The notes under the pieces were generated by a model. That model worked only from the letters and a program-made list of their open reading frames with translations, was not told the DNA's origin and did not search any database. A stretch of DNA of 64,000 nt from a virus. Lineage: Duplodnaviria > Caudoviricetes. Positions within the stretch are counted from its first letter, which is position 1. Each line of letters begins with the position of its first letter. Of the stretch, positions 37,598-61,142 are shown piece after piece. Where the stretch lies: positions 1 to 64,000 of the IMG/VR virus record IMGVR_UViG_3300020050_009836; one strand, written 5' to 3'. The position numbers were made by a program, and so were the translations under genes.

Positions 37598-39363
37598 TTA
37601 CCTTCACGCTCTTTCATGATGCGGTCACGAATCTTTTTACTCCAAGATGCGCCAGCGTCACCGCCCCACAAGTCCCATGCAACCCGTCCCTTGCTCGGAA
37701 AGCCATCTTGACCACTATTGAATCCAGTAGCCTGTTTATCAACTTCGTGTCGTGAGAAGAATGAATACATGCGAAGGACAGTGCTCTCGGACAGACTCTC
37801 GCCATTCACTAACTGGTTGGCACGTGTCAAACCAATTATTGTCCCACCGGACTTGCCTTCTTTTTTCCACTGAAGTGCACGTCTGGCAGCGGATTGCATG
37901 CCAGACGTTGGCTTATAACCTTCAGCCTTTACTTCTTCTAGTTCAACTTCTGTTGCTTTTTGTTCTGGCTGGGGCGTTGGAGGTGTGGTTGGCGGCTCCG
38001 GCTGTACCGGTGGTTCTGTTGGTGTTTCGGGTGGCGTTGCGTTTGCTTCGACGCCCACTCCAGTCTGAGAGTTGATGCCTTCATCTTCACTTCTTGCTAC
38101 CTCTCCAATCATCTTTCTGGCTTCAGCCTTATCGATGATTCCAGCAGCATACAGTGTTGTTGCTCTTGATACACGAAGCGATTCATCCTCTTGGAGTGCT
38201 GGTACTTCAGTATTGTCAAAAGCTACGATGTCATCTTCCTGCAAGTCAGTGTACTCAGGAATCATCGCCATGGTGATTTGAGCACATAGTTGTTCTTGCA
38301 GAGGAATCATTCCATCTTCCCATGCAGCACGACGTGCTTCAGCATAGTTAGAGTAAGTATTCCTCTCAAGTCCTGCACCAAGCCCCAGAACCATACAGTT
38401 CAATCCTAAGGCTGATGCAATTCTTTCTTCTGGTTTACGTCGTAGTTCATCAAGGCTTAATTCAGCCGGTGACATCGACATCCTACTGATGGAGTAAGGC
38501 GCAGTAGATACTGCAATACCACCTGCATTGTCTCCGCAGAAATCTTCTTGTAAACGCTTTTTGAGGACTCGTGCATCCTCTTCCATGATTTCAACCATCA
38601 TGTCACCAGAAGCTGGACCCACCATCAAGGACGGCATTGCGTTGTTCTTGAGAAGTGAATAACTGACAGTGGAACTCTGGTTGTCTGCGGCAACTTCTTT
38701 TAGGACGGATGCTATCGTTGAGCGACCAACACGGATATCCATCGGGTCACGTAAATACCGCCAATGAATGATGTCTTCAGATGCTATGTCGTACTGGACT
38801 CCATCCACCATGTAGATGTACTCTTTTACGATAAGTTCAGGCTCACCCTTTGGGGTAACCATGTCACACGGCAAGAACTGTAAGTAAACAACTTCACTAC
38901 GGCGACCACCCTTGCGAACTTTTCGTGCATAGGCATTGCCTTGCAATTTCAAGTCCTGCGTAATCCATCCATAGAATGTGTTCGCCGGTACTCCCGGTGA
39001 CGGATTTCTAAGAAGAGTCAGTAGTGGGTGTGTGTCGATAAGTTCAAACTTGTCAGATTTTGTATCCTGAACATTACGTTGAATTACCAACTTGCCTACA
39101 TTTAGATTTCGGATATACCAATCAAGCCCGATGGCAATAATAGAGTTGAGACCAAGGTCACCAGCCTCTTTTGCCCAATCAAGTTTGCTCGATGGTAGTT
39201 TGGTTGTGATGATGCTTTCAAGCCCACCGTTACCTGCACGTGCAACGGCACGGGTACGGTTTCGCGGCTGTGGAGCCTCAGCACTTGGGCGTAGAGTGAC
39301 TTTTACTTCATCTTTACCCGTTAGGGCTAACCAAGCGTCAGAGAACCTGCTTAACAAGCCCAT
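37594..39363 (-). CDS. portal protein with Pro-rich linker and C-terminal extra domain
   Basis: LLTLLRNP, LKLQGNAY, DIIHWRY.DP, G.STI, IASALGL, YSNYAEA; then PPETPTEPP linker and RMYSFFSRHE...AWDLWGG domain. Confidence 0.9.
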   Translation of the reverse strand: MGLLSRFSDAWLALTGKDEVKVTLRPSAEAPQPRNRTRAVARAGNGGLESIITTKLPSSKLDWAKEAGDLGLNSIIAIGLDWYIRNLNVGKLVIQRNVQDTKSDKFELIDTHPLLTLLRNPSPGVPANTFYGWITQDLKLQGNAYARKVRKGGRRSEVVYLQFLPCDMVTPKGEPELIVKEYIYMVDGVQYDIASEDIIHWRYLRDPMDIRVGRSTIASVLKEVAADNQSSTVSYSLLKNNAMPSLMVGPASGDMMVEIMEEDARVLKKRLQEDFCGDNAGGIAVSTAPYSISRMSMSPAELSLDELRRKPEERIASALGLNCMVLGLGAGLERNTYSNYAEARRAAWEDGMIPLQEQLCAQITMAMIPEYTDLQEDDIVAFDNTEVPALQEDESLRVSRATTLYAAGIIDKAEARKMIGEVARSEDEGINSQTGVGVEANATPPETPTEPPVQPEPPTTPPTPQPEQKATEVELEEVKAEGYKPTSGMQSAARRALQWKKEGKSGGTIIGLTRANQLVNGESLSESTVLRMYSFFSRHEVDKQATGFNSGQDGFPSKGRVAWDLWGGDAGASWSKKIRDRIMKEREGK

Positions 39364-41633: not shown

Positions 41634-42204
41634 TGATGAACTAGTACCGATTGATTTATCGGTTCCTGAATCAAGAGACTCTATCAAGGAAGAATTATCT
41701 GCTCCACTTTTTGATGAGTACCACGCACGACGTCAAGCAGTGATGAGTTCGAAACGACCTGACGGCAAAGCCTATGGCGGAACTCCTCTATCAATTGACG
41801 ATACCAAGATGAAAGTTATCTTGGATGCAATCCTTGCCGGAGCATCGCACTCTGTAGCGGCTCAAGTCGCTGGTGTGCCTGTCAGGAGGCTCAAGGACTG
41901 GATAGTACGTGGTGAGAGTGGTGACATGGATGTCCCTACAGAACTCGTCGAATTTGCACGTCGTGTACGCATGGCTGAAAGCCGTGGTGAGTTAGGACTT
42001 ATTGTCCGTATACGTCGTGCTGCGGAAGAAAACTGGGGTGCCGCCGCTTGGCTACTAGAAAGACGACATAGCAAGCGTTGGGGCAAAAAAACTACTGTTG
42101 ATGTGAGGCAAATGACAGATGAGCAAATTACAAGACTCCTTACGGCAGAAGCTGATGGAGGAAGCGATACGGCGGGGATTGAGGATTCCGGGGACGACGA
42201 GTGA
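41626..42204 (+). CDS. terS: terminase small subunit-like HTH protein
   Basis: AAQVAGV..RRLKDWI HTH, AAAWLLERR...WGKK; directly upstream of terL. Confidence 0.7.
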   Translation: MDDDELVPIDLSVPESRDSIKEELSAPLFDEYHARRQAVMSSKRPDGKAYGGTPLSIDDTKMKVILDAILAGASHSVAAQVAGVPVRRLKDWIVRGESGDMDVPTELVEFARRVRMAESRGELGLIVRIRRAAEENWGAAAWLLERRHSKRWGKKTTVDVRQMTDEQITRLLTAEADGGSDTAGIEDSGDDE

Positions 42205-43570
42205 TATCTACAACCCTTATAGGGATGGTATTGAGAAAGGCTCGATGGAGTCTTTTCATGAGTATCTAAAACTTACACTCCCAAAGGGATGGACTGCTGA
42301 CCCAGCGCATATCAAGTTAATTGCTGAACACCTTGATGCAGTTGACCGTGGACAGATTGACCGACTGGCAATCTCAATGCCCCCTAGACATGGCAAAACC
42401 GAAACTACTACAGTTCGTTACGGGGCATATGCGTTTGAAAAGAATCCTAGGGACAACGTCCTTGTAACTGCATATAACGAACGTATCGCACGTAGGTTTA
42501 GTCGTAAGGCAAGAGTAATCGTTGAATCACGTCGCCAACTCATGACCAGTAGTCGTGCTGCTGATGAATGGGGAATGCCTGAAGGCGGCACCTTTATGAG
42601 TCGTGGTGTTGGTTCTCCACCTACCGGTGTAGGTTTCAAGAGAATCATCATCGATGACCCTATCAGGCGACGTGAAGACGCTGAAAGCATCAACCTGCGT
42701 GAAAAGGCTTGGGACTGGTTTACTGACGATATCTACACTCGTCTTGAACCCGGTGGAGCCATGATTATCGTTGCTACACGTTGGCATCATGATGACATCA
42801 CAAGCCGTGCCATTGAGTCCGAGCCAAACAAATGGGTTGTCCTAAAACTTCCGGCTATTGCGGAAGAGGCTGACCAACTAGGACGGCAACCGGGTGAGTC
42901 TCTGTGGCCTGAGCGTTATTCAGTTGAAGACTTGATGCGTATCAAAGCGGTCATGCTTCAAAACGAAGGAGAGTACGGCTGGCAAGCACTGTATCAGCAA
43001 TCTCCAACACAACGTTCGGGTGCGATGATTCGTCAAGACCGTATCTCTACTTTCCAAGAACTGCCTCTGTCAGTTGGAAGATTCCGCAGAGTTATCAGGG
43101 CTTGGGACTTGGCATCGACACGTGGTGCAGGTGACTATACGGTTGGAGTTAAGGGTGCTCTCGATAACATCGGACGCTTCTGGATACTCGATGTAGTCAT
43201 TGGTCAGTTCGATGTGGATGAGCGTGACAACATCATTTACAGGACTGCCGAGATGGATGGTAAAGATGTCACCATACGGCTCCCACAAGACCCAGCACAG
43301 GCAGGAAAGAGTCAGGCTAGATACTTACTCAGAATGCTTCACGGGTACCGTGTGAGCATCCAAAGTCCAACAGGCAATAAGACGTTGAGGGCTGAGCCAT
43401 TTGCGGCACAGGTAAACAACTTCAACGTCAATATGATAGCCGCCGCATGGAATCAACCTATGCTCGATGAGTTCAGGCAATTTCCTATGGGGCGGCATGA
43501 TGACATCGTTGATGCAACCGTAGATTGCTATGACGAATGTACGAAGAAGAGGACTATGTCTTTCGCCTAG
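42119..43570 (+). CDS. terL: terminase large subunit
   Basis: Walker A MPPRHGKT, Walker B IIIDDP, nuclease RAWDLA, QDPAQAGK, HDDIVDA. Confidence 0.95.
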   Translation: MSKLQDSLRQKLMEEAIRRGLRIPGTTSDIYNPYRDGIEKGSMESFHEYLKLTLPKGWTADPAHIKLIAEHLDAVDRGQIDRLAISMPPRHGKTETTTVRYGAYAFEKNPRDNVLVTAYNERIARRFSRKARVIVESRRQLMTSSRAADEWGMPEGGTFMSRGVGSPPTGVGFKRIIIDDPIRRREDAESINLREKAWDWFTDDIYTRLEPGGAMIIVATRWHHDDITSRAIESEPNKWVVLKLPAIAEEADQLGRQPGESLWPERYSVEDLMRIKAVMLQNEGEYGWQALYQQSPTQRSGAMIRQDRISTFQELPLSVGRFRRVIRAWDLASTRGAGDYTVGVKGALDNIGRFWILDVVIGQFDVDERDNIIYRTAEMDGKDVTIRLPQDPAQAGKSQARYLLRMLHGYRVSIQSPTGNKTLRAEPFAAQVNNFNVNMIAAAWNQPMLDEFRQFPMGRHDDIVDATVDCYDECTKKRTMSFA

Positions 43571-50029: not shown

Positions 50030-50429
50030 ACTTCGTGTATGGTTTATCCCATTCAGGGTCTAGGAAGTAGTGTCTTCGACCGACATAGAACAGTTGACCG
50101 GTTGGACCGCAACCCTCTGCTCTCCAAGTGCCGTCTGAATATCGTTCAATCGTAAGACTGATTCCTTTAGTGTCACGAACCATTGTCGCCACACCGTTTT
50201 TCATAACAACCTTATCTGACTGAATTACGAGTTTGGCATATCCAGTTTTCAGATTGATAGGGAAAGTCTTTACAATCGTATAAGGATATAAGTCGGTATA
50301 AAGAACTTCGGTTACACCAGTAAACCTATCTGCCTTCAATGGACCACACTCTTTTGCTAAAGTAATGTTCCGTGCAGAACCATAGTACGAGTCAACCCAC
50401 TCAAAAATTGGTTCGACATTATTTGTCAT
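50028..50429 (-). CDS. hypothetical protein (133 aa)
   Basis: TAATG-coupled to exonuclease. Confidence 0.65.
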   Translation of the reverse strand: MTNNVEPIFEWVDSYYGSARNITLAKECGPLKADRFTGVTEVLYTDLYPYTIVKTFPINLKTGYAKLVIQSDKVVMKNGVATMVRDTKGISLTIERYSDGTWRAEGCGPTGQLFYVGRRHYFLDPEWDKPYTK

Positions 50430-51076
50430 TATTCACTAAAACCTTTTTCAACCACATCACACCATGTCTTATCAGCAGCATCTGCCAATGCTTTTTGAGT
50501 TGGTTCGTGTGCGGCAATCTTTACTAGAAACGGACCGCCACCCCATTCTGCGACATGAATGTTCTTTACAGCCAGTTCATTTGAGAAATCATTTGTACCA
50601 ACATTGTCGTGGTACAAGATTAGGTGCATTTCATTGATACCTAATACCAACAACTGATACTGCATTTGATTGTAGACAGACTGTGAGATTGACTTACTGT
50701 TTTTGTAGTCAGATACATATCTGAATCCGCACTTGCACTCAAGGGCAAACACTTCTCCGGTATCGGATATATGTAAGCCGTCAAGTGATACACGGCGCCA
50801 AGGGTGCTCTATCGATTGTATGCATTCTGGCTCAAACTTACGTTCAAGCTTCTCTTCAGCAATAGCACGTGCATAAGGCTCAAGAATATGACCAAGTTGC
50901 ATTGCTTGCGTTGATGGACTACTAGCCGTATCAACAGCTTGCAGTTTTTCACTAATGAACCGAGCCTTACTACCGGGCGTCAGTAGACGCCCGGCTTCAG
51001 TGGCAGTTATCCCGCCTTTTCTCCAGTTCAACCACTCCTCTGTACCTTGTTCCATGGCTATCACCGTGAAATTCAT
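50429..51076 (-). CDS. YqaJ/lambda-exonuclease family protein
   Basis: QGTEEWLNWRKGGITAT, GHILEP.AR, SLDGL, ALECKC, YNQMQYQL. Confidence 0.9.
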   Translation of the reverse strand: MNFTVIAMEQGTEEWLNWRKGGITATEAGRLLTPGSKARFISEKLQAVDTASSPSTQAMQLGHILEPYARAIAEEKLERKFEPECIQSIEHPWRRVSLDGLHISDTGEVFALECKCGFRYVSDYKNSKSISQSVYNQMQYQLLVLGINEMHLILYHDNVGTNDFSNELAVKNIHVAEWGGGPFLVKIAAHEPTQKALADAADKTWCDVVEKGFSE

Positions 51077-52416: not shown

Positions 52417-52728
52417 ATGACATTCAGCGAAATTACTAAGTACGTAACTGAGGGCAGAACTGTATATAGAACGTCAACACCAGAAGAACTTTACTTCATA
52501 TTTTCTGGTCGCATAGCGAACGTTGTTCTGTTTACAGCAGAGACTGAGTATCTGCCTGAGCCGGGTCTTGGTTACTGTGCTTACACGCAAGACGCAGATG
52601 GGATGGAATACAAGATTCTCTCCGACTGGCAACTATCAGCGGAAATGCTCTTAGCCGAAGATTGGGAAATCGTGCCAGAGATGCTCCTTGAATGGGGTGG
52701 AGAAGACAAGTCAAAGCTTGAACAATGA
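52417..52728 (+). CDS. DUF2829/Tad2-like protein
   Basis: MTFSEI...EGRTVYR...SAEMLLAEDWEIV. Confidence 0.7.
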   Translation: MTFSEITKYVTEGRTVYRTSTPEELYFIFSGRIANVVLFTAETEYLPEPGLGYCAYTQDADGMEYKILSDWQLSAEMLLAEDWEIVPEMLLEWGGEDKSKLEQ

Positions 52729-53357
52729 CAATACACGACATATTGATTCCACTTGAGTTGGGATTGTTTTGTAGGCGTAAATCAGAGCCGGAATACTACT
52801 ACTTTGTATATGATGGCAAAAACTATAACCGTCAAGTCGGGCTTGCACCAGAAGATGGACGACCAGCACTAGGTAAGGGATATAAGATATCCGCATATCC
52901 AGTGTTGCTTGATGGCTACAACGGATACAGCCTTGAAGACTGGGAGCCATCGGAATATGACGCCATCCAGATAGATTGGGAAGTTCCAGCCATAGATATG
53001 GTTCTTCCTGATGCACCGGTTGAAACTCAAGTAGAAGAGAAAAAACAACTAAAGCGTTTAGACGTATCGAAGCCAATACTCAAACGACCAGAACGTCAAG
53101 TTGAGCCTGATTCAGGTATCGACTTTGACACTTCTCTGATACACATCAAGCATGGCGGGATAATTGAAGCACCAATTTATGGTGATGGTGATGTGCTGGC
53201 TAAGCAGTACTACCTCTTCAATTTGCAGACACTGATGACACGAGACCGCCTCTACGATAAGAAGTACACGCCTTGGGTTGCATACACATGGGTTGATTCA
53301 GATTTCACGTGTATGAACTATAGGCTACTTGCAGCAAAGGACAGAAATGACACCTAA
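52725..53357 (+). CDS. DUF2829/Tad2-like protein, possibly two tandem domains
   Basis: MTIHDI...ELGLFCRRKS...DAIQIDWEV; second start-like segment DFDTSLIHIKHGGII. Confidence 0.55.
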   Translation: MTIHDILIPLELGLFCRRKSEPEYYYFVYDGKNYNRQVGLAPEDGRPALGKGYKISAYPVLLDGYNGYSLEDWEPSEYDAIQIDWEVPAIDMVLPDAPVETQVEEKKQLKRLDVSKPILKRPERQVEPDSGIDFDTSLIHIKHGGIIEAPIYGDGDVLAKQYYLFNLQTLMTRDRLYDKKYTPWVAYTWVDSDFTCMNYRLLAAKDRNDT

Positions 53358-53580
53358 GAAACGTTACTACTATTTCATCAAAGCAACGGGCTACAATGAC
53401 GAAAAAGCGTACACGATGACCACGAAAGCCAAGTACCAGATATGCGAACTGATAAAAAAGGGCATCTCTCCGGTAACTGTGTACAGAGCTGATGTCACTG
53501 ACTTAGAGAATCTAGAGCAGGTTGCTGTTTGCGATGAGAAGTGGTGGGCTGATTACTTGCAAGGGAAACGTGGATGGTGA
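53347..53580 (+). CDS. hypothetical protein
   Basis: Coupled small ORF (MTPKK). Confidence 0.6.
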   Translation: MTPKKRYYYFIKATGYNDEKAYTMTTKAKYQICELIKKGISPVTVYRADVTDLENLEQVAVCDEKWWADYLQGKRGW

Positions 53581-53963
53581 TTACACTCCTAACAACTGGT
53601 CAAAAAGACGAGATGAAGACTGCCTTTACAGAGGAAGTCGTTGCAGTGCTGCATACAAATACAGAGACTACTGCTGAGCTTTACTTCGGTGACTACTCTT
53701 GTGTGGTCACTAAAGCATATGTCACAGACATTGAATCGGATGACCGGAACTGGGAAGAGGGAATCATCAAGTACAAACTTATCTATGACAATGGACATAT
53801 GGAGTCAGATATGTCTGGTCGGTTCGTAGGTAAGTATCTGGCGCACATGGCAAATCCGGAAGTCTACGTACAAGAGAAGTTTGACTGGATTTACACTAGG
53901 CTCATAAACAAGATTCTGACGAGTGCTGACTGTTGCCAGCATTACGACGAACTAGATTATTAA
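53574..53963 (+). CDS. hypothetical protein (129 aa)
   Basis: Coupled ORF. Confidence 0.65.
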   Translation: MVITLLTTGQKDEMKTAFTEEVVAVLHTNTETTAELYFGDYSCVVTKAYVTDIESDDRNWEEGIIKYKLIYDNGHMESDMSGRFVGKYLAHMANPEVYVQEKFDWIYTRLINKILTSADCCQHYDELDY

Positions 53964-53966
53964 TAG

Positions 53967-53995
53967 TTGACAAACTTCATGTAAAGTGGTAAAAC
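53967..53995 (+). promoter_or_regulatory. sigma70-like promoter, leaderless start
   Basis: TTGACA-17-TAAAAC (TGn)-6 nt-ATG(54002). Confidence 0.55.
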
Positions 53996-54001
53996 ACTTA
54001 C

Positions 54002-54274
54002 ATGCAACAAAACAACAACAACAATACACCGCTCTGGTTCATAGGTGGATTACTACTTGGTGGTACCAACCTTGCATCATCGGTGTTTTTGCTTTTCGGT
54101 CTTATCTGTGCCGTATTTGTATTCATGCTTGGCTCATTTCTGAGTGCCCTAACATTTGCCATCGTTACGCACTGGAAATCGCTTCTACTGTATGTTGTCA
54201 TTGGCCTTATCTTTACGTTCCTTGGTCACATCTACATGCTTGAGGAAAAGAAGAAATATGAAAATAAAGGCTAA
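54002..54274 (+). CDS. membrane protein (2-3 TM)
   Basis: Hydrophobic core, basic tail. Confidence 0.7.
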   Translation: MQQNNNNNTPLWFIGGLLLGGTNLASSVFLLFGLICAVFVFMLGSFLSALTFAIVTHWKSLLLYVVIGLIFTFLGHIYMLEEKKKYENKG

Positions 54275-54593
54275 TTACCTTGCGCTTGAGTGCGACCAAT
54301 ATACGGCTTGCCATGTGTTAGTCATGCTTTATCAAGGGAGCGTTGAGTCTGAGTATATTAGGCTGACTATCACTGACATCCTATCCAACGATGTCGGGTT
54401 GGCTCCACTTGAAATCTACCCAGTCATCGATGATGAAAAAGAACTGTACACAGTACGAATGAGACTGCGTGGAGTGGAAGAAATCAAGACCTATTCATAC
54501 ACGCAGATGAATAAGATGTTAAACAACAGACTTATCCCGTTCTGGATGACTGAGATTGACAAGTGCGTAGAGTCGATGAAGGGGCTAAACTGA
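54258..54593 (+). CDS. hypothetical protein
   Basis: Start moved to MKIKA. Confidence 0.6.
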   Translation: MKIKANYLALECDQYTACHVLVMLYQGSVESEYIRLTITDILSNDVGLAPLEIYPVIDDEKELYTVRMRLRGVEEIKTYSYTQMNKMLNNRLIPFWMTEIDKCVESMKGLN

Positions 54594-54832
54594 TGACTCT
54601 GGAAGAGGCGTTGTTTTGGTTGCGGGATGGAAAACTAGTTGTATCCAAAAAGATGATGATGCGGTTCCGTATGGAAAAGCGACCAGTATCACTTGGCGGA
54701 AGGCAGAAGCAGTACTGGTTTATTGACTTCCAGCATTGTGGGACGAAATTTCCAGAGGAGTGGATACGGTGGCACAGTGCCAACGATGACTTCTTTGATT
54801 TGATAAACGATGATACTTGGGAGTTGGAATGA
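54593..54832 (+). CDS. DUF2829/Tad2-like protein
   Basis: MTLEEALFWLRDGKLV...DLINDDTWELE. Confidence 0.6.
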   Translation: MTLEEALFWLRDGKLVVSKKMMMRFRMEKRPVSLGGRQKQYWFIDFQHCGTKFPEEWIRWHSANDDFFDLINDDTWELE

Positions 54833-55020
54833 CTATTGCAGAACTAATGCCACAACTAGAAGAAGGGCTTGTCATAAAGACAGCCACACATAGACTCAGA
54901 AAGGGAGTTGTTTCCTATGAGTGGACTAACGTTGGCTTGCCAGATATCTGGTGGCCATTCTTGTGTCCATTGTCAATGGTAGACATAACAACTGACTGGG
55001 AAGTAGAGGAAACAGTATGA
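54829..55020 (+). CDS. DUF2829/Tad2-like protein
   Basis: MTIAELMPQLEEGLVI...DITTDWEVE. Confidence 0.6.
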   Translation: MTIAELMPQLEEGLVIKTATHRLRKGVVSYEWTNVGLPDIWWPFLCPLSMVDITTDWEVEETV

Positions 55021-55292
55021 CGTTCACTGAATCTTTGGCTCACTTACTGAAAGGTGAAGTCATGAGGCGTTACGAAGATAACGTAGAGTATAGATTTTGG
55101 TTCAACAAGGAAACACGCACGGGTATGTGTGAGTACCACGCAGACAAATTTGCAAGCATGTGGTACATCAGCATCGAAGATATCCTTGATGAAAGTTGGG
55201 ACTTTGCTATCCCAGAAGACAAAGAACGCATCCTAAACAAGTACTCTGATGCATCAAAATACATCCTTGGCTCACGTATCACTAAACGATAG
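55017..55292 (+). CDS. DUF2829/Tad2-like protein
   Basis: MTFTESLAHLLKGEVMRR...EDILDESWDF. Confidence 0.65.
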   Translation: MTFTESLAHLLKGEVMRRYEDNVEYRFWFNKETRTGMCEYHADKFASMWYISIEDILDESWDFAIPEDKERILNKYSDASKYILGSRITKR

Positions 55293-55299
55293 TCATTCA

Positions 55300-55371
55300 G
55301 GCTCTATAAGTAAAAGGTCATACTAGGGGACTCATAATCCCTCTTTGATAGTTCGAGTCTATCTGGAGCCA
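55300..55371 (+). tRNA. tRNA with CAT anticodon (Ile2 or elongator Met), no encoded CCA
   Basis: Acceptor GGCTCTA/TGGAGCC+A, D-stem AGTA/TACT, GGGGA-CTCATAA-TCCCT, T-arm GATAG-TTCGAGT-CTATC. Confidence 0.9.
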
Positions 55372-55378
55372 CTAACAC

Positions 55379-55402
55379 AAAGCACCTCACTGGTGCTTTT
55401 TT
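55379..55402 (+). terminator. intrinsic terminator after tRNA
   Basis: AGCACC-TCACT-GGTGCT-TTTTT. Confidence 0.75.
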
Positions 55403-55412
55403 CTTTTTACTA

Positions 55413-55441
55413 TTGACAAACATTCAACCTTGATGTAAAGT
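55413..55441 (+). promoter_or_regulatory. sigma70-like promoter, leaderless start
   Basis: TTGACA-17-TAAAGT-6 nt-ATG(55448). Confidence 0.7.
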
Positions 55442-55447
55442 GAACAT

Positions 55448-55639
55448 ATGAAATTCACTGATGTAGTTAATGCATTGATAGCCGGAAAGCGGGTCAGGCG
55501 AACAGCTTGGCATCGAGTAGGCAGTTATATAACGTGTGATTTTGAGCAGATGACTATGTACGTCGGTGGAGTTGTTAGTGCATTTAGCCCAAACAAGGTT
55601 TCATTGATTGCTGATGATTGGGAGGTGCTAGATGACTAG
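55448..55639 (+). CDS. DUF2829/Tad2-like protein (closest to consensus)
   Basis: MKFTDVVNALIAGKRVRRTAW...SLIADDWEVL. Confidence 0.8.
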   Translation: MKFTDVVNALIAGKRVRRTAWHRVGSYITCDFEQMTMYVGGVVSAFSPNKVSLIADDWEVLDD

Positions 55640-55976
55640 TGAAGAGTTAGTTGATGCTTTACTTGACGGTAAAACTTTGACCCATAGTTTCTTTGGGAGA
55701 AACGGTCGTGTCCACGTACTGCATGATGCAGAAGAGGGTGGCAGACATCACCGGTTAGTTGTTGTTTATAAAGACAACGAACTAGGTTGGAGTAGAGAAA
55801 CCTATAAAGAGTCCATTGCTAGGTCAAAGCCAGAGAGTTTCTTGAAGCATATCTACATCGATACTCTAAACCTACACCGTGACAACGTCATGATGATACG
55901 TGAACAGTACTGGATGCTCAAGGATGCATATTGTGAGTCAGGTTGGTCAATCTGTGAGCCTACAGATGGAGTTTAG
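55632..55976 (+). CDS. DUF2829/Tad2-like protein (divergent)
   Basis: MTSEELVDALLDGKTL...YCESGWSI. Confidence 0.45.
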   Translation: MTSEELVDALLDGKTLTHSFFGRNGRVHVLHDAEEGGRHHRLVVVYKDNELGWSRETYKESIARSKPESFLKHIYIDTLNLHRDNVMMIREQYWMLKDAYCESGWSICEPTDGV

Positions 55977-56232
55977 AGCCAAGCCGTCTGGTTGCAAGTA
56001 CTTGTCAAAGAAAGACCAAGAAGCAATCAGGTTTGCTATGAACTACTTCAGGGAGAACCCAACGGAACTTTCTTGTACGTTGTACGAAGTGCTGCCTGAT
56101 GGAACTGAACAGATAGTTGGAAATATCCCAAATCCTAAGTTTGAGAAATTAGAAGAGAACGTTATGCGGCTCATGTCCATATACACGCACTTTAAGAAAA
56201 AGGGTGAACCAACACCAGAAGTGTGGCAATAA
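55966..56232 (+). CDS. hypothetical protein
   Basis: Start moved to MEFRA. Confidence 0.6.
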   Translation: MEFRAKPSGCKYLSKKDQEAIRFAMNYFRENPTELSCTLYEVLPDGTEQIVGNIPNPKFEKLEENVMRLMSIYTHFKKKGEPTPEVWQ

Positions 56233-56233
56233 A

Positions 56234-56464
56234 ATGACACTACATGAAATAACTCCATCTGTGACAAAAGGTTTGCCATTCCGGCGCACTGTTTGGGCTG
56301 AAGGAATCTACTACTACTACGACATCAATGAGTCGTGGTTCTTAAAGCAAAGGCTTGTTGATGGGGACGAATATGAACTCATCACGTATACACTTGACCT
56401 TACACTTGAAGACTTGATGGCTACTGACTGGGATGTTGATGACTGGGGCGATGAAAATGAATAG
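56234..56464 (+). CDS. DUF2829/Tad2-like protein
   Basis: MTLHEI...KGLPFRRTVW...LTLEDLMATDWDV. Confidence 0.75.
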   Translation: MTLHEITPSVTKGLPFRRTVWAEGIYYYYDINESWFLKQRLVDGDEYELITYTLDLTLEDLMATDWDVDDWGDENE

Positions 56465-56669
56465 TTTTGAAGCGATGGAAGCACTTCGTGAAGGACGCAA
56501 AGTCAGATTTATTTGGTGGCCTGACGAGAACTACATCATTAGGGTAAACGACGATATCAAGGGTTTTCCGGATACCTTTGATACATACATCCAAGAGAAT
56601 CCTTGGCGAGTCATATGGCTAGTCTTTGATACTGCTCACGACTCTAGCCTTTGGCAAGAAAAAGATTAA
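56457..56669 (+). CDS. DUF2829/Tad2-like protein
   Basis: MNSFEAMEALREGRKVRFIWW...DSSLWQE. Confidence 0.65.
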   Translation: MNSFEAMEALREGRKVRFIWWPDENYIIRVNDDIKGFPDTFDTYIQENPWRVIWLVFDTAHDSSLWQEKD

Positions 56670-56951
56670 ATGAAACTAATACTTACACACCGTGTATACA
56701 CTCACGACGACGGAACAATCACAGACAGATACGACGCTGTTGGTGACAGTAAAGATGCCGAGTTGGTCATCCATGGGTTCAAAATAGACTATGATGTGTG
56801 GCGTCCACTAGACTCTGAACTAGAGTTTTTTATCCGCCAGATTGTTACTGACCCAGAAAGACCAAATCGCACAATCGTTGATGAAACGGGTAAGTGCGCC
56901 ACAGTCAATGTACACAAAAAAGTCAAGTCAGTAACCATCGAGTGGGAGTAG
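56670..56951 (+). CDS. hypothetical protein (93 aa)
   Basis: Abuts previous stop. Confidence 0.65.
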   Translation: MKLILTHRVYTHDDGTITDRYDAVGDSKDAELVIHGFKIDYDVWRPLDSELEFFIRQIVTDPERPNRTIVDETGKCATVNVHKKVKSVTIEWE

Positions 56952-57211
56952 ATATTTATCCACTGAGTGGATAGAATCTATCCATAGAACCTATCAAGCC
57001 TCTACATATGCTCAAACCGATAGGTCCCTATGCCCGTATCTTATCTCCCAACCTACAAACCCGAATGGCTTGCTGTTCGGGTATTTTTTTCGTGGTAGTA
57101 TCAGGTTGCCACCGAAAGGTGAGCTTTGAAAGGCTAGAAAACTCCTCTTCTTGCCCGACAAATTCGGACTCTGCAAAACCGAAAGACCAGTTTCACAGAC
57201 TGGTCTTTTTT
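56943..57211. ncRNA. candidate structured RNA/attenuator region
   Basis: Several nested hairpins, a GAAA tetraloop hairpin and two terminator-like elements in a gene-free 290 bp. Confidence 0.3.
57182..57211 (+). terminator. intrinsic terminator
   Basis: AAAGACCAGT-TTCACAG-ACTGGTCTTTTTT. Confidence 0.8.
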
Positions 57212-57248
57212 GTTTGTATACCTATGATGAAAATATACTTTTATATCG

Positions 57249-57278
57249 TTGACAACGGAAAACCAATGGATGTATAAT
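57249..57278 (+). promoter_or_regulatory. sigma70-like promoter
   Basis: TTGACA-18-TATAAT. Confidence 0.75.
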
Positions 57279-57321
57279 TGTTATGTAAGGGAGATATCCA
57301 AGGACATCTTTAAGGGACTAC

Positions 57322-57561
57322 ATGATAGATATTGCATTCGACCCTATATGGGCACTAAAGCACGGATACACGATTGTTAGCGAGTATGAAAACGGTGCGA
57401 TAAACGAGTACAAGATTATTGAAGGGCAACTTATGTCCAAGTCTTCGTTTTTGTTATTTGATGGAGACCGCACTGGTGACGATTACTTTCGTCCATGCCT
57501 TCATCTCAAGCTTGGTGTAAACGCTAAGTATTCACTCGTACCAGCAGAGGCAGCATTTTGA
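57322..57561 (+). CDS. hypothetical protein, weak DUF2829-like N-terminus
   Basis: AAGGGA RBS; FDPIWALKHGYTIV. Confidence 0.55.
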   Translation: MIDIAFDPIWALKHGYTIVSEYENGAINEYKIIEGQLMSKSSFLLFDGDRTGDDYFRPCLHLKLGVNAKYSLVPAEAAF

Positions 57562-57779
57562 CGATAGACGCAGCAATCAAAAGCATACTTGAAGGTAACA
57601 AGGTCGCAAACGAAGCCGACTTGACTTTCAAGGAAGTCTACTTCGATAAAGAGTCAAGATACTTCATCTACTCTATCCAAGGAGTCGAGTCCATGAGGGA
57701 TAGGAATTTAGTACTGACGGTATCTGATTTGAAAAGCAAAGAGTGGAAAACTGTTGACATTCGGACAAGCACTACATAG
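57558..57779 (+). CDS. DUF2829/Tad2-like protein
   Basis: MTIDAAIKSILEGNKV...SDLKSKEWKTV. Confidence 0.65.
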   Translation: MTIDAAIKSILEGNKVANEADLTFKEVYFDKESRYFIYSIQGVESMRDRNLVLTVSDLKSKEWKTVDIRTSTT

Positions 57780-57969
57780 TTTAAAAAACGGTTTTACTGT
57801 GACTCGCACATACGTTGAGTCCGACGCTGTTGTTGTTGTATTTTGTAAATTGACAAACAACCAAAAACTGGTCAGAAAGAAAGTCACGACTAACTATCAG
57901 TCCGGCTGGAGGCATTCTGGCTGGTCACTGAAAGACTTGTCAGCAACCGACTGGATAGTCGCTGGTTGA
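57754..57969 (+). CDS. DUF2829/Tad2-like protein
   Basis: MTFGQALHSLKNGFTVTR...KDLSATDWIV. Confidence 0.75.
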   Translation: MTFGQALHSLKNGFTVTRTYVESDAVVVVFCKLTNNQKLVRKKVTTNYQSGWRHSGWSLKDLSATDWIVAG

Positions 57970-58148
57970 CGACTGTAGAGGCGTAGGAGTACATCAATGC
58001 TGGCGGTCAAGTAAGACATGCCACGTGGTCAATGGATGTTTACGCATTCATGAAAGATGATGTGCTCTACGTCACTAACGATGTCCACTCATGGAATTGT
58101 CCACCTCTAGAATTCTTCTCTAATAACTGGCAGATATATACAAAGTAA
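57966..58148 (+). pseudogene. DUF2829/Tad2-like gene interrupted by in-frame TAG at codon 7
   Basis: TTG ACG ACT GTA GAG GCG TAG(57984-86) GAG...: MTTVEA*EYINAGGQVRHATW...FFSNNWQI; not in ORF track. Confidence 0.65.
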
Positions 58149-58186
58149 GATACACTTGTCATGAAAAGGGAAAAGGGGGAAGTGGA

Positions 58187-58561
58187 ATGGATTTCATAAC
58201 TATCATCGGTTTGGTGTTTGGGCATTGGTTTGCCGACTTTGTACTACAGTCACGTAAGATAGCAGAGAGTAAGTCGAGTAGCCTACGGTCACTGTTTACA
58301 CATGTAGGCTTGTACACTACTGGTCTTGCTTGTGTGATGGGACCTATTCTCATCATGCATCATAGTTGGAGGTTAGTGTTATCCTTCATCTTACTCAATG
58401 GCTTCTGCCATCTAGTCACTGACTTTGCTACATCTAAGATGTCGGCGCATGCTTGGCAGTCAGAGGATAAGAGCCAGTTCTGGAATATCATCGGCTTTGA
58501 CCAGTCTATCCACTGGAGCCACTTGCTGATTACTTACTTCGGCTTCTTTGTGTGGGGTTAG
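58187..58561 (+). CDS. DUF3307-like membrane protein
   Basis: HWFADFVLQ, HVGLY, HLVTDF, IGFDQSIH. Confidence 0.8.
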   Translation: MDFITIIGLVFGHWFADFVLQSRKIAESKSSSLRSLFTHVGLYTTGLACVMGPILIMHHSWRLVLSFILLNGFCHLVTDFATSKMSAHAWQSEDKSQFWNIIGFDQSIHWSHLLITYFGFFVWG

Positions 58562-58562
58562 T

Positions 58563-59030
58563 ATGTGGCCAAGTAACAGCGGCATAAAGCCAAGACCAAG
58601 TGACGAAGATATCTATAAACAAACAACTAAGCAAGTACTTGATAAGTTGGTGGAACTGCGAGAGAATCGACGTTCATATGAGTGGATAGCATGCTACATG
58701 TTTACCAACAACTACCAGTCGCCATATAAGCGCTGGAACGTGAAGTTAGTCAAGTCACTTCTTTGGTCTCATGGGTTTAAACGGGAAACAATGTACAAGG
58801 CTCCGGACTACCGATACTTACTACTCATTGAATCCTTGAAGGCTGATGGCGTGAGTGTTGACGATATAGCCGAGCATCTAAACAGCCAAGGTAAGAAGAC
58901 AGTAAATGGTAATCCGTTTACTGGAAGCTTGGTAAAGCAGTACGTTAGTCGTTACAACGGACTCAAGGTCAAGTACGGTGACGATGTTGTTAGGTTTACG
59001 AAACCAGTGGAGGAAGACGATGACATTTGA
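58563..59030 (+). CDS. DNA-binding protein with two recombinase-type HTH repeats, no catalytic domain
   Basis: YEWIACYM...KRWN...VK and DDIAEHLNSQGKKT.NG.PF...VK. Confidence 0.55.
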   Translation: MWPSNSGIKPRPSDEDIYKQTTKQVLDKLVELRENRRSYEWIACYMFTNNYQSPYKRWNVKLVKSLLWSHGFKRETMYKAPDYRYLLLIESLKADGVSVDDIAEHLNSQGKKTVNGNPFTGSLVKQYVSRYNGLKVKYGDDVVRFTKPVEEDDDI

Positions 59031-59274
59031 AGAAGCAGTAAAGGCTATGGATAACGGTTCCTTTGTCCGTAGGTCTGGATGGTCAAAGAACATCAAGTTG
59101 TACGCAGCCTATCCGACAGACGAACAAGATAAACGAGAGTTAAACAACAAGCGGCATATCTTTGCACAGATTGACTCATACGAGCCAGAATACGCCATCT
59201 TCCGTATATCGGACATCTATGGTGACGACTGGTATGTCATTGATGAGGACAACATTACAGACAATGAGTTGTAA
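59020..59274 (+). CDS. DUF2829/Tad2-like protein
   Basis: MTFEEAVKAMDNGSFVRRSGWS...SDIYGDDWYVI. Confidence 0.8.
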   Translation: MTFEEAVKAMDNGSFVRRSGWSKNIKLYAAYPTDEQDKRELNNKRHIFAQIDSYEPEYAIFRISDIYGDDWYVIDEDNITDNEL

Positions 59275-59551
59275 GTACAACGACAAACAACTGCGAGCAA
59301 TGAGTCATGTATATAGTGCTCACCTAGTAAAAGGAAACGTCGGTGAAGGTGACTACTATCCATTGATGTATGGAGTGGAAAGCGTAGTCAACTTGGCTAT
59401 GACTGAGAAGGGTGCCGCCTTTACTTACAGTAGGGGTGATTGGCACGTGATTTACATCCGTGACAAGAGGAAGTGGAAGGAAGACGAAGACTTTCTACTT
59501 ACGGCTATCAAGGGTGATGCAGTGTTTTATCAAACGGAGGATGACAAATGA
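59264..59551 (+). CDS. hypothetical protein
   Basis: Start moved to MSCKY; ATGA-coupled downstream. Confidence 0.55.
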   Translation: MSCKYNDKQLRAMSHVYSAHLVKGNVGEGDYYPLMYGVESVVNLAMTEKGAAFTYSRGDWHVIYIRDKRKWKEDEDFLLTAIKGDAVFYQTEDDK

Positions 59552-59751
59552 CATTTGGACAGATTTACGGCGCACTGAAAAAGGGACGATGGGTTGGTCG
59601 CTCTAGCAAAGAGAGTGAACGGTTGTCGATTATGGATGGCAGAATCCTTACATCCGTTTGGGTTGATGAGAAGTTTGTTGTTTATGTCAATAGTGACGTA
59701 ATGCTGACAGCAGATGATTTACTAGCCGAAGACTGGGTTGTCTACAACTAA
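59548..59751 (+). CDS. DUF2829/Tad2-like protein
   Basis: MTFGQIYGALKKGRWVGRSS...TADDLLAEDWVVY. Confidence 0.8.
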   Translation: MTFGQIYGALKKGRWVGRSSKESERLSIMDGRILTSVWVDEKFVVYVNSDVMLTADDLLAEDWVVYN

Positions 59752-60444: not shown

Positions 60445-60862
60445 TGTTGACAAACAACCGGCTAGTGTTGTAAACCGTAAGACCCATGGAAGAATCGAAC
60501 TGCCTAGGCATGATGACTCATTACTACGTGAGTACTGCCGTAAGAAGCGGTTACTAAACGGCTGGACGTACGCTTACGTGGGTAGGCAAGTACTACAGCG
60601 AAACGGTAAGCCGTACTCAAAGATGAACATCTATAACTGGGTTACTGGACGTATACACTTCGGACCAGAGTACTCCTTCAAGATGGCTCAAGCATTTCGT
60701 GTACATCCAGTGTATGCAGCTTTCCTTATGCGTAGGATTCCAGAGTACGAGTTAGTAGATGATTATCCAGATGAGAGTGAGGTCGTTGACTACCTTATGA
60801 GCGGCATGCAACAGTTTGGATTTAAGATAAAAGCGGAAGATAAGAAGTATGAAATTATCTGA
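60437..60862 (+). CDS. XRE-like HTH protein
   Basis: LREYCRKKRLLNGWTYAYV...YSKMNIYNWVTG. Confidence 0.6.
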   Translation: MSNVDKQPASVVNRKTHGRIELPRHDDSLLREYCRKKRLLNGWTYAYVGRQVLQRNGKPYSKMNIYNWVTGRIHFGPEYSFKMAQAFRVHPVYAAFLMRRIPEYELVDDYPDESEVVDYLMSGMQQFGFKIKAEDKKYEII

Positions 60863-61142
60863 CTATGTGAAGAGACGACGTAAAGAACTAGGGCTAACAC
60901 AAAAAGAATTAGCTCGTGCCGCTGGTCAAGACTCTGGCTGGATATGCATGCTTGAGACCGGGTTACGTAACTGTGGTAACCAAACAGCAGAGCCACTAGC
61001 CAAGGCGTTAGGTGTACGAGCAGACGTACTACACTTGCTTAGTGGTCACTCACCAGTACTAGACTTCCGTGATGACATACCCATGGAAGACATAGAGGCT
61101 GCCATCGATGAGTTCAAAGCAAAGGTAGCAAACAACTATTAG
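60849..61142 (+). CDS. XRE/Cro-CI family HTH regulator
   Basis: VKRRRKELGLTQKELA..AG.DSGWICMLETG...LAKALGV. Confidence 0.9.
   Translation: MKLSDYVKRRRKELGLTQKELARAAGQDSGWICMLETGLRNCGNQTAEPLAKALGVRADVLHLLSGHSPVLDFRDDIPMEDIEAAIDEFKAKVANNY

Follow-up and report, generated by a model that had tools for sequence, protein, structure and literature searches.

A tandem array of 14 diverged Tad2-like genes in an uncultured freshwater tailed phage

SPO1 Tad2 (Gp34.65; PDB 8SME/8SMF/8SMG, 8WJE), founding member of the Thoeris anti-defence 2 sponges, holds gcADPR through W25, N26, W73 and D79 (bioRxiv 10.1101/2023.05.01.538930). The ligands of Tad2 homologues include 3'cADPR, His-ADPR, N7-cADPR, cUMP/cCMP and cGAMP, some of them bound in a second pocket (bioRxiv 10.1101/2025.08.24.671296). 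One tetramer of Myroides odoratus Tad2 (MoTad2/ModTad2; PDB 9EIB, 8V3E) holds two ligands, His-ADPR and, in the second interface pocket, cUMP, and specificity has shifted between members of the family (bioRxiv 10.1101/2025.08.24.671296). The HgmTad2/AcrIIA7 scaffold (PDB 8KBI-8KBM, 8WJC) can bind cyclic dinucleotides in its second pocket, or RNA; AcrIIA7 blocks Cas9, with tracrRNA held in a basic groove of the tetramer (PMC13133391). When sponge-family homologues (Acb2, Tad1 and Tad2) were assayed, 19 of 84 failed to inhibit any of seven systems (bioRxiv 10.1101/2025.08.24.671296).

Positions 52417-59751 of the window (the whole 64,000-nt stretch analysed) form an accessory region with 14 old paralogues that encode minimal Tad2-fold proteins of about 20% mutual identity (Table 1). 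The window belongs to the 83.9-kb (83,860-bp) genome of an uncultured freshwater tailed phage, and a Pfam profile search of that entire genome places every PF11195 (Tad2-like) match within 52417-59742. We found no published description of such tandem Tad2-like arrays in the literature. Klebsiella phage KP8, taken as a spot check, has just one PF11195 gene and lacks an early array.

Table 1. Genes and elements of the Tad2-like array, in window positions.
Coordinates	Strand	Feature	Evidence
52417..52728	+	Tad2-like gene, long form, 103 aa	PF11195 33.8 bits, end-to-end; orthologues in L021, L022, L026; dN/dS 0.14
52725..53357	+	210-aa protein, Tad2-like domain at residues 1-88	PF11195 15.6 bits (residues 1-87); local profile 62.6 bits (1-88)
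54593..54832	+	Probable Tad2-like gene, 79 aa	Local profile 12.5 bits (control maximum 6.4); hhalign 91.8%, 60 columns; G001 orthologue 85% identical
54829..55020	+	Probable Tad2-like gene, 63 aa	Local profile 9.3 bits; hhalign 92.0%, 57 columns; dN/dS 0.29
55017..55292	+	Tad2-like gene, 91 aa, basic C-terminal tail	PF11195 15.4 bits, near full length; jackhmmer E 1.9e-16
55300..55372	+	tRNA-Met (CAT), within array	ARAGORN
55379..55441	+	Terminator-like hairpin 55379-55399, then promoter-like TTGACA-17-TAAAGT 55413-55441	Consensus scan, pattern matches only
55448..55639	+	Tad2-like gene, minimal form, 63 aa	PF11195 36.4 bits; AF2 pLDDT 92.3; Foldseek top 24 all Tad2/AcrIIA7
55632..55976	+	Possible Tad2-like gene, 114 aa	Local profile 10.1 bits; hhalign 58-73%, N-terminal part only
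56234..56464	+	Tad2-like gene, 76 aa, very acidic (pI 4.1)	PF11195 21.1 bits, end-to-end; jackhmmer E 2.8e-16
56457..56669	+	Tad2-like gene, 70 aa, atypical C-terminus	jackhmmer E 1.2e-12; hhalign 97.8%
57059..57278	+	Two terminator-like hairpins 57059-57082 and 57181-57209, then promoter-like TTGACA-18-TATAAT 57249-57278	Consensus scan, 12/12 matches; pattern matches only
57558..57779	+	Probable Tad2-like gene, 73 aa, TTG start	hhalign 91.8% (64 columns, local profile), 92.6% (external profile); dN/dS 0.12
57754..57969	+	Tad2-like gene, 71 aa, TTG start	PF11195 28.8 bits; G001 orthologue 87% identical
57966..58148	+	Tad2-like gene, 60 codons, TTG start	Sequence; intact orthologues in L021 (L021:9149-9331), L022, L026
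59020..59274	+	Tad2-like gene, best family match, 84 aa	PF11195 39.5 bits; dN/dS 0.07
59548..59751	+	Tad2-like gene, 67 aa	PF11195 21.9 bits, end-to-end; jackhmmer E 1.8e-16

Membership is graded. Genes 52417, 55448, 57754 and 59020 exceed the PF11195 gathering cut-off of 25 bits; 56234, 59548, 55017 and the N-terminal domain of 52725 fall below it, yet match the profile over all or nearly all of their length. All six close homologues of 59020 carry PF11195, and a local jackhmmer search seeded with this gene converged on nine window genes, gaining 56457 (E 1e-12). No Pfam match was found for 56457 or 54593. Four weak candidates score 9.3-12.5 bits with the local profile, against best scores of 6.4 among 977 shuffled and 5.6 among 977 reversed ORFs. 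In hhalign comparisons with an external profile built from 235 metagenomic domains, 54593 (91.8%), 54829 (92.0%) and 57558 (92.6%) each span 57-60 columns, and 55632 reaches 73% through its first 57 residues (47 columns); seven non-family neighbour genes reach 0.2-22%. The tally comprises nine robust members, 57966, three probable members (54593, 54829 and 57558) and one possible member (55632), the last with just three close homologues in 5.8 billion proteins and an unusable AF2 model (pLDDT 44.7).

The count agrees with the initial annotation, which had recognised about 14 diverged paralogues, assigned them to DUF2829/Tad2 by eye and proposed a PF11195 search; that search, a PDB profile match and Foldseek TM-scores of 0.83-0.87 show the assignment to be correct. 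It had also read 57966 as an interrupted copy. This is a real family gene whose in-frame TAG (57984-57986) occurs in this record only; position 57986 is T (codon TAT, Tyr) in contigs of three DNA runs (X1, X2 and X6) from three metagenome studies. Two of its suggestions fared less well. Gene 57322, listed as a weak member, is rejected, its hhalign value of 8.6% against the external profile lying within the range of non-family neighbours, and a second domain in 52725 is unsupported, the unassigned C-terminal extension (residues 89-210) giving 0.8% against the family. A single weak BLAST hint of such a domain was seen.

The likeness among copies lies at the protein level only, with no DNA-level repeats in the array apart from about 15-20 nt at the DW-motif codons. 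An alignment of 24 sequences (A1; window copies and orthologues) confirms the shared terminal signature and unrelated middles noticed at the outset: M1 and the C-terminal W never vary, G13 is conserved to at least 90%, and the consensus reads MTF.E....L..G..V.R ... DL...DWEV around unalignable middles. Paralogues have in common only alpha1, G13, V16, R18, the D at the Tad2 D79 place and the final D-W, and their mean identity is 0.21, versus 0.79 inside orthologous groups.

The array is syntenic in three relatives (L021, L022 and L026), which carry 16-17 copies each versus 13+1 here, and another relative, with a 52% identical terminase, has three tandem copies. In all, 19 orthologous groups make up a lineage pool that has been reshuffled mid-array by gain, loss and swapping of copies, with synteny kept in at least three relatives. 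At the position of 56457, for example, another Tad2-like gene (L021:6977-7201, with its orthologues) is found in G001, L022 and L026, and ortholog grouping finds an orthologue of 56457 only in L026. Amino-acid identity to G001 orthologues ranges from 42 to 90%, and dN/dS of the copies from 0.07 to 0.43; the array consists of real genes that evolve under purifying selection.

Searched against the PDB, the array profile matches Tad2/AcrIIA7 chains only (E 1.9e-8 to 1.9e-5). The AF2 model of 55448 runs alpha1, beta1-4, short helix, beta5, with a five-stranded antiparallel sheet whose last strand is preceded by the short helix. Its only significant Foldseek matches in the PDB are Tad2/AcrIIA7 structures, among them SPO1, Myroides, Hgm and Spt Tad2, and the next unrelated match has E 0.58. 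The pocket elements described for Tad2 (bioRxiv 10.1101/2023.05.01.538930) are all present in this minimal model, namely the beta1-beta2 loop, beta4, the loop before the short helix and the short helix itself. The beta2-beta3 loop bearing helix alpha2 is missing from it, the one short copy modelled, and because alpha2 forms the V-shaped Tad2 dimer, assembly may differ from that of Tad2.

The full SPO1 set of W25, N26, W73 and D79 occurs in none of the 14 copies, nor does the W25-N26 pair. W25 is kept in five (55448, 56234, 56457, 59020 and 57966), followed at the N26 place by H in 55448, A in 56234 and S in 59020; 52417 has T-P at these two places. W73 is kept in about three copies, and most have D at the D79 place: 52417 retains W-x-x-S at W73/S76, 52725 retains W-E-P-S and D at W73/S76/D79, and 55017 retains W, S and D there. 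W25 is present in 209 of 235 domains (89%) of the wider short-form family, so the array is unusually eroded at the sole pocket residue that the family conserves. The initial annotation had proposed a sponge arsenal whose variable middles tune each copy to a separate immune signal. Family and fold bear out part of this, but the incomplete ligand sets are a difficulty for such tuning and, with the alpha2 loop missing from the modelled copy, weaken the sponge claim.

Five groups of neighbouring genes are coupled through overlaps of 4, 8 or 26 nt: 52417/52725, 54593/54829/55017, 55448/55632, 56234/56457 and 57558/57754/57966. The starts of 52725 (ATGA), 54829 and 57966 overlap the stops of 52417, 54593 and 57754, respectively, and 55632 overlaps 55448 by 8 nt. 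TGGGAG, which encodes W-E in the C-terminal motif, doubles at several junctions as the next gene's ribosome-binding site. Among the top metagenomic relatives, 84 of 147 are two-domain proteins, with halves 26% identical (median) and a linker of about six residues; the short-form domains have a median length of 63 aa. Because stop/start overlaps imply translational coupling and unlike pairs are fused elsewhere, the working unit may often be a heteromer of adjacent copies. Promoter-like and terminator-like pattern matches to consensus divide the array into three putative units, the first and second probably meeting at 55379..55441 and the third probably starting at 57059..57278.

Our preferred reading, held tentatively at a probability of roughly 0.42, is that the minimal Tad2-fold copies are small, mostly acidic binders for counter-defence, acting early in infection through interface pockets on non-canonical ligands and often as heteromers. 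Promoter-like sites and gene content give the array the look of an early region. As in Tad2, protomer interfaces would provide the binding sites, and each copy or pair could present a different pocket. Since the W25/N26/W73 set is missing, the copies are probably not canonical gcADPR sponges; they might bind different small molecules, perhaps immune nucleotides. The working unit would often combine neighbouring copies.

The copies might instead bind macromolecules, either host RNAs, as AcrIIA7 binds tracrRNA, or host proteins, as a set of takeover or anti-defence inhibitors on a small stable scaffold. The array profile matches AcrIIA7, itself a PF11195 member (9kzr, E 1.9e-5), and surfaces that are paralogue-specific and orthologue-conserved suit a protein or RNA partner no less than a small ligand. 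The sole basic copy, 57754 (pI 9.8), fits RNA binding, but the acidic pI (4.1-5.8) of 12 of the 13 intact copies counts against it for most, and we regard this explanation as rather unlikely. A battery of classical Tad2 homotetramer sponges, holding known immune nucleotides (gcADPR, cyclic di-/trinucleotides, cCMP/cUMP and cyclic oligoadenylates) in Tad2 pockets, is the arsenal taken literally, and we consider it improbable. Proven Tad2 proteins do jointly cover several signals with two different pockets (bioRxiv 10.1101/2025.08.24.671296; 10.1101/2023.11.15.567273), and family, fold and the frequent D79 agree with such a role, but the G-W-N-G-K that follows alpha1 in Myroides, Hgm and SPO1 Tad2 (alignments shown) and in SptTad2 is found in no window copy, most copies have lost W73, the short-form model lacks the alpha2 dimer element, and a stoichiometric mechanism multiplied over 14-17 homotetramers would be a large expression burden.

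More doubtful still is the idea that the copies work for the phage itself, for instance by regulating transcription or as small proteins associated with the virion or its assembly. Genes 52417, 59020 and 59548 match PHROG 643, labelled 'transcriptional regulator' (E 5e-5 to 3e-3), but that label is a putative annotation and Pfam shows no DNA-binding motif in the copies. One short-form relative of 68 aa is flanked by baseplate genes in a Mu-like module, a location that speaks against an early or anti-defence setting. The array itself, however, lies outside the structural module (3-39 kb), and regulators or structural proteins are not normally 14-19 diverged, gained-and-lost paralogues. An origin of the motifs by chance, from a DNA cassette repeated at both ends of genes or from neutral duplicates in decay is already refuted, despite the double use of TGGGAG, by the lack of longer DNA repeats, full-length profile and fold matches, shuffled and reversed controls at or below 6.4 bits, orthologues in four genomes with dN/dS below 0.45, and a sole stop codon private to this record.

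The closest known counterparts resemble the array in some respects and differ from it in others. SPO1 Tad2 belongs to the same Pfam family (profile E 4.6e-7), shares the fold of the one modelled copy, and has equal spacing of the M1, G13 and W25 places and a D-L-x-A-x-D-W C-terminal motif that includes D79. However, it has 89 aa versus 60-84 aa for most window copies, its alpha2-containing beta2-beta3 loop is a dimer interface, and it is described as a single gene versus 14 in this phage. Myroides odoratus Tad2 is the array profile's best PDB match (E 1.9e-8), but keeps G-W-N-G-K and long loops and has known ligands, whereas no window copy has the pocket residues as a set. HgmTad2/AcrIIA7 and Phocaeicola dorei AcrIIA7 (PDB 9KZR) fall in the same family (E 2.9e-7 and 1.9e-5), but are longer at 104-158 aa and carry either a large central insert or an N-terminal head domain, and their basic RNA-binding groove contrasts with the mostly acidic window copies. 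Outside the phage clade, the sequences nearest to the array are short-form metagenomic Tad2-like proteins (for example P0014 and P0018, with P0010 and P0011 carrying four and five domains), none with a described function. They share with the array both the minimal architecture and the tandem multiplication of unlike domains, but mostly fuse two domains in one polypeptide and largely keep W25, whereas the array consists of separate, partly overlapping genes, most of them without W25.

The Tad2-like (DUF2829, PF11195) genes at 52417-59751 form an array of conserved, diverged Tad2-family members that is reshuffled among related phages, and the fold of one copy has been modelled. The source record, 83,860 bp and complete by CheckV, is a tailed phage. 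Close cultured phages were not found (best terminase identity ~41%), and among 50,697 phage records there was no match to the block by megablast or, by tblastn, to the copy 55448 (copies are named by start position) or to P0018, a metagenomic relative. Near-identical DNA occurs in runs of 12 studies, labelled mostly as freshwater or viral metagenomes. RNA-library contigs (run X20) carry small parts of the block only, mostly outside the Tad2-like genes; they are possibly DNA carry-over and are not evidence of transcription.

Features of the array and its surroundings. Residues 21/22 correspond to W25/N26 of SPO1 Tad2; promoter and terminator calls are consensus pattern matches only.
Feature	Position	Strand	Residues 21/22	Remark
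Tape-measure protein	13704-16007	minus		
Major head protein	33589-34950	minus		
Portal	37594-39363	minus		
Large terminase	42119-43570			
YqaJ-type exonuclease	50429-51076	minus		upstream of block
Tad2-like block	52417-59751	plus		
Copy 52417	52417-52728		T-P	
Copy 52725	52725		E-P	
Copy 54593	54593		M-M	
Copy 54829	54829		H-R	
Copy 55017	55017		D-N	
tRNA-Met (CAT)	55300-55372			mid-array, followed by terminator-like hairpin and promoter-like site
End of putative first unit	55379-55399			terminator-like hairpin just past tRNA-Met
Putative second unit	55413-55441 to 57059-57082, 57181-57209			promoter-like site to hairpins
Copy 55448	55448		W-H	
Copy 55632	55632		F-G	
Copy 56234	56234		W-A	
Copy 56457	56457		W-P	
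Putative third unit	57249-57278 onward			perfect TTGACA-18-TATAAT
Copy 57558	57558		D-L	
Copy 57754	57754		V-E	
Copy 57966	57966-58148		W-S	residues read directly from sequence
DUF3307 membrane protein	58187-58561			PHROG 2470, moron/host takeover; 82% identity in relatives
160-aa protein	58548-59030			weak recombinase-type HTH match; 43% identity in relatives
Copy 59020	59020-59274		W-S	
Copy 59548	59548-59751		K-E	
W-E codon junctions	54810-55020, 55610-55640, 57735-57760			predicted ribosome-binding sites
HTH_3 regulator	60849-61142			downstream of block

The initial annotation recognized about 14 paralogs by eye and proposed a sponge arsenal; PF11195, jackhmmer and profile-profile scores all bear out the shared Tad2-like signature. 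Four copies (52417, 55448, 57754 and 59020) exceed the PF11195 gathering score of 25 bits (28.8-39.5 bits), and four more match end to end below it (56234, 59548, 55017 and residues 1-87 of 52725; 15.4-21.9 bits). PF11195 did not match 54593, 54829, 55632, 56457 or 57558, nor those orthologues of 54593, 54829, 55632, 57558 and 57966 that were scanned, and the Pfam-negative copies are joined to the family by local and external profiles only. Searched in six frames, the complete genome has PF11195 matches only within 52417-59742. Started from 59020 and run over all ORFs of the genome and three related loci, jackhmmer converged on nine window genes, gaining 56457. Below these, and with no other sequence intervening, come 54593, 57558, 55632, 54829 and their orthologues (5.6-12.5 bits; 9.3-12.5 bits for the four window genes), against maxima of 6.4 bits for 977 shuffled and 5.6 bits for 977 reversed ORFs. 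In hhalign against the local family profile, 57558 scores 91.8% over its full length, while alignments through the N-terminal helix give 78-80% for 54593, 67-68% for 54829 and 58-62% for 55632. An external profile, built from 235 domains excised from metagenomic relatives, gives 91.8%, 92.0% and 92.6% for 54593, 54829 and 57558 (57-60 columns each) and 73% for 55632 (first 57 residues, 47 columns); seven unrelated neighbours score 0.2-22%.

Given these Pfam, jackhmmer, control and hhalign scores, the sequence comparisons point to nine robust, three probable and one possible member, with the interrupted copy 57966 besides, and the array is one of 14 genes at the population level. The listed copies are thus retained at graded strength except 57322, which had been entered as a weak member and is removed (hhalign 0.8-8.6%, the range of non-family neighbours). 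A second domain, suspected in 52725, is not supported: residues 96-210 score 0.8% in hhalign, residues 89-210 (the C-terminal 120 residues) have no family match, and the sole hint is a BLAST alignment, from a tiny database, that places 57754 on residues 139-199 in the orthologue from the related contig G001. The same protein carries I-D-F-D-x-x-L-x-H-x-K-x-G-G at about residue 132 and D-F-x-C-x-x-Y-R-L-L at about residue 193, which recall the Tad2 start and end motifs and are not significant by hhalign. For 55632, an AF2 model from five near-identical orthologues is unusable (pLDDT 44.7), and an ESM Atlas look-up returned weak leads (scores 0.80-0.82), among them a cluster in which 10% of members carry PF11195. 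The block contains no direct DNA repeats except 15-20 nt at the D-W codons; likeness among the copies is at the protein level only.

Two PHROG families touch the array. PHROG 643, named 'transcriptional regulator', matches 52417, 59020 and 59548 (E 5e-5 to 3e-3), and the name may be an untested label on the Tad2-like family. The first half of PHROG 6670 (120 positions) matches 55448, so that this family may be a two-domain relative.

The interrupted copy 57966 is a real gene. Its TTG start overlaps the stop of 57754, codon 7 is TAG (57984-57986) and the rest of the frame is open. Three relatives hold an intact orthologue, and in three DNA runs, each from a different study, contigs at least 99% alike over the surrounding stretch read T rather than G at 57986, giving TAT (Tyr). 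The TAG is therefore private to the source record, a rare variant or an error. Reassignment of TAG is rejected on its single occurrence, the lack of a suppressor tRNA in the window and the TAT of other populations.

Promoter-like and terminator-like patterns suggest that the array is divided into three transcription units. Overlaps of 4, 8 or 26 nt with the following gene are frequent among the copies. At several junctions the codons for a C-terminal W-E (TGGGAG or TGGGAA) lie 8-14 nt before the next start and resemble a Shine-Dalgarno site, so that protein motif and translational coupling share the same bases. Small non-family genes are interspersed among the copies, and apart from the DUF3307 protein and the 160-aa protein they have no family; a query of IMG/VR with 58548 found no relatives.

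The array is found in synteny in G001 (an 82.5 kb IMG/VR record with a 97% identical terminase) and in two ENA contigs, L022 (87.6-kb) and L026 (35-kb), each of the three with 16-17 copies. Across the G001 array region the DNA is ~65-82% identical and orthologous proteins are 42-90% identical. Single-linkage grouping yields 19 orthologous lineages, five of them missing from the source phage. Gain, loss and replacement are concentrated at ~56.2-57.3 kb: where the source phage has 56457, a different Tad2-like gene stands in G001, L022 and L026, and of these only L026 has an orthologue of 56457 as well. The ~370-bp stretch 56952-57322 has no convincing gene and contains a pair of terminator-like hairpins together with a perfect match to the sigma-70 consensus; it has the look of a site from which a copy was lost, since relatives have an extra Tad2-like gene at the matching place (L021:8245-8481, in a relative's array locus). 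Three tandem copies stand at the contig end of a more distant relative, whose terminase is 52% identical. Paralogues share ~15-28% identity, so the duplications or acquisitions are old. Values of dN/dS against G001 are 0.07-0.43, and are rough and unable to demonstrate positive selection because dS is saturated (> 1, or not computable for four array genes).

Beyond these phages, a profile searched exhaustively against 1.84 billion cluster representatives recovers 4,119 relatives at E 0.001 or better. Two-domain proteins are the commonest form by domain count (84 of the 147 top relatives), their halves a median 26% identical and joined by a linker of about six residues. The relatives P0010, P0011, P0012 and P0088 carry three to nine Tad2-like domains per chain, and HMMER matches four stretches of a 296-aa chain, five of a 711-aa chain and nine of a 1,674-aa chain; short Tad2-like domains that differ from one another are therefore commonly multiplied in tandem in nature. 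A gut contig holds two adjacent copies. The 68-aa relative P0136 (L027:6001-6207 and L028:2181-2387, both contigs) lies inside a Mu-like baseplate module, flanked on one side by a 166-aa gene after a Gp44/GpP-like gene and on the other by GP46, Baseplate_J and Gp48, a setting that seems unlike an early anti-defence locus. Klebsiella phage KP8 (MG922974.1) has one PF11195 match mid-genome (37219-37458, 84 bits, in a 178-aa open frame); none was found in its first 9 kb or among its early genes.

A 24-sequence array profile searched against all PDB sequences finds Tad2/AcrIIA7 chains only: Myroides Tad2 (8V3E, 9EIB; E 1.9e-8), HgmTad2/AcrIIA7 (8KBI; 2.9e-7), SPO1 Tad2 (8SME; 4.6e-7), SptTad2 (8WJD; 3.9e-6) and P. 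dorei AcrIIA7 (9KZR; 1.9e-5). The Tad2 fold starts with a helix, which is followed by an antiparallel sheet of five strands with a short helix inserted between beta4 and beta5, and the one copy tested for it, 55448 (63 aa), is predicted by AF2 to adopt this fold (45-sequence alignment, pLDDT 92.3; H3-11, E15-18, E27-30, E35-39, E42-46, H50-54, E58-61). The proposed structural match is upheld for this predicted model by Foldseek, whose top 24 PDB hits are all Tad2/AcrIIA7 (query-normalised TM 0.83-0.87; next hit E 0.58).

The ligand pocket is another matter. SPO1 Tad2 holds its ligand through W25 and N26 (the G-W-N motif), W73 and D79, and comparison with this pocket counts against the canonical sponge: in the alignment, the whole set is in no copy. 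Spacing from M1 through G13 to the W25 place is identical in every copy, which places W25/N26 at positions 21/22. W25 is present only in 55448, 56234, 56457, 57966 and 59020, and the W25-N26 pair in 0 of 14 copies, whereas the aligned Tad2 chains read G-W-N-G-K here. W73 in a W-x-P/x-S context occurs only in 52417, 52725 and 55017. D79, the first D of D-L-x-A-x-D-W, is present in most copies; its identity is 71% when paralogues are compared and 100% inside orthologous groups. Of the 235 domains in the external family of short forms (minimal Tad2-like domains), 209 have W25 and 29 have N26, so loss of N26 is general to the short form and loss of W25 a feature of the array. With the canonical pocket gone, gcADPR is not expected as a ligand.

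Tad2 proteins capture immune nucleotides stoichiometrically at the interfaces between protomers; the family has two distinct pockets, and specificity shifts from one homologue to another (bioRxiv 10.1101/2023.05.01.538930, 10.1101/2023.11.15.567273, 10.1101/2025.08.24.671296). One family member captures tracrRNA instead: in pdAcrIIA7, a basic groove in the tetramer core (K58, K66, K71, K93, R101) holds the RNA (PMC13133391). Judged by bulk charge only, most array copies do not look like basic RNA binders of the AcrIIA7 type; 12 of the 13 intact copies are acidic (pI 4.1-5.8, net charge -1 to -13), and 57754 is the only basic copy. Small-molecule capture is ranked above RNA binding because most copies are acidic.

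The array genes would be expressed early and in quantity, and the copies would bind something at paralogue-specific surfaces. Since unlike domains are fused in pairs elsewhere and neighbouring genes are coupled here, heteromeric assembly is a reasonable guess. On a speculative reading, to which we give just under a one-in-five chance, the array is a combinatorial sponge kit in which coupled neighbours form heteromers whose asymmetric interface pockets take up different host signals. Such signals would include undescribed messengers, and the pool of 19 lineages would be swapped between phages, tracking the defence repertoires of their hosts.

In the literature searched, no mention of Tad2 arrays was found and Tad2 is treated as a single-gene sponge. 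Sponges have served as messenger finders, Tad1 leading to cADPR isomers and MoTad2 to His-ADPR (bioRxiv 10.1101/2025.08.24.671296). Here a phage clade keeps 14-17 diverged sponge-fold members per genome, each retained among relatives and none with the known pocket. Either these copies are a bait panel, a ready-made set for unknown ligands, or the fold serves as a binder scaffold in general and the "sponge" label is too narrow for it. Fused two-domain relatives and coupled gene pairs raise the question of whether Tad2-like proteins work as heteromers.

In the known sponge assembly, V-shaped dimers formed through alpha2/beta2 join into a homotetramer by the interlocking of alpha1, and the pockets lie between protomers; complex prediction for four copies of 59020 with alignment A4 scores 0.36 against a mark of 0.42, a value that counts neither for nor against oligomerisation. 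In SPO1 Tad2, a long beta2-beta3 loop with helix alpha2 builds the V-shaped dimer (bioRxiv 10.1101/2023.05.01.538930). The 55448 model is without this loop and helix; in common with SPO1 Tad2 it has alpha1, the sheet and, ahead of beta5, the short helix.
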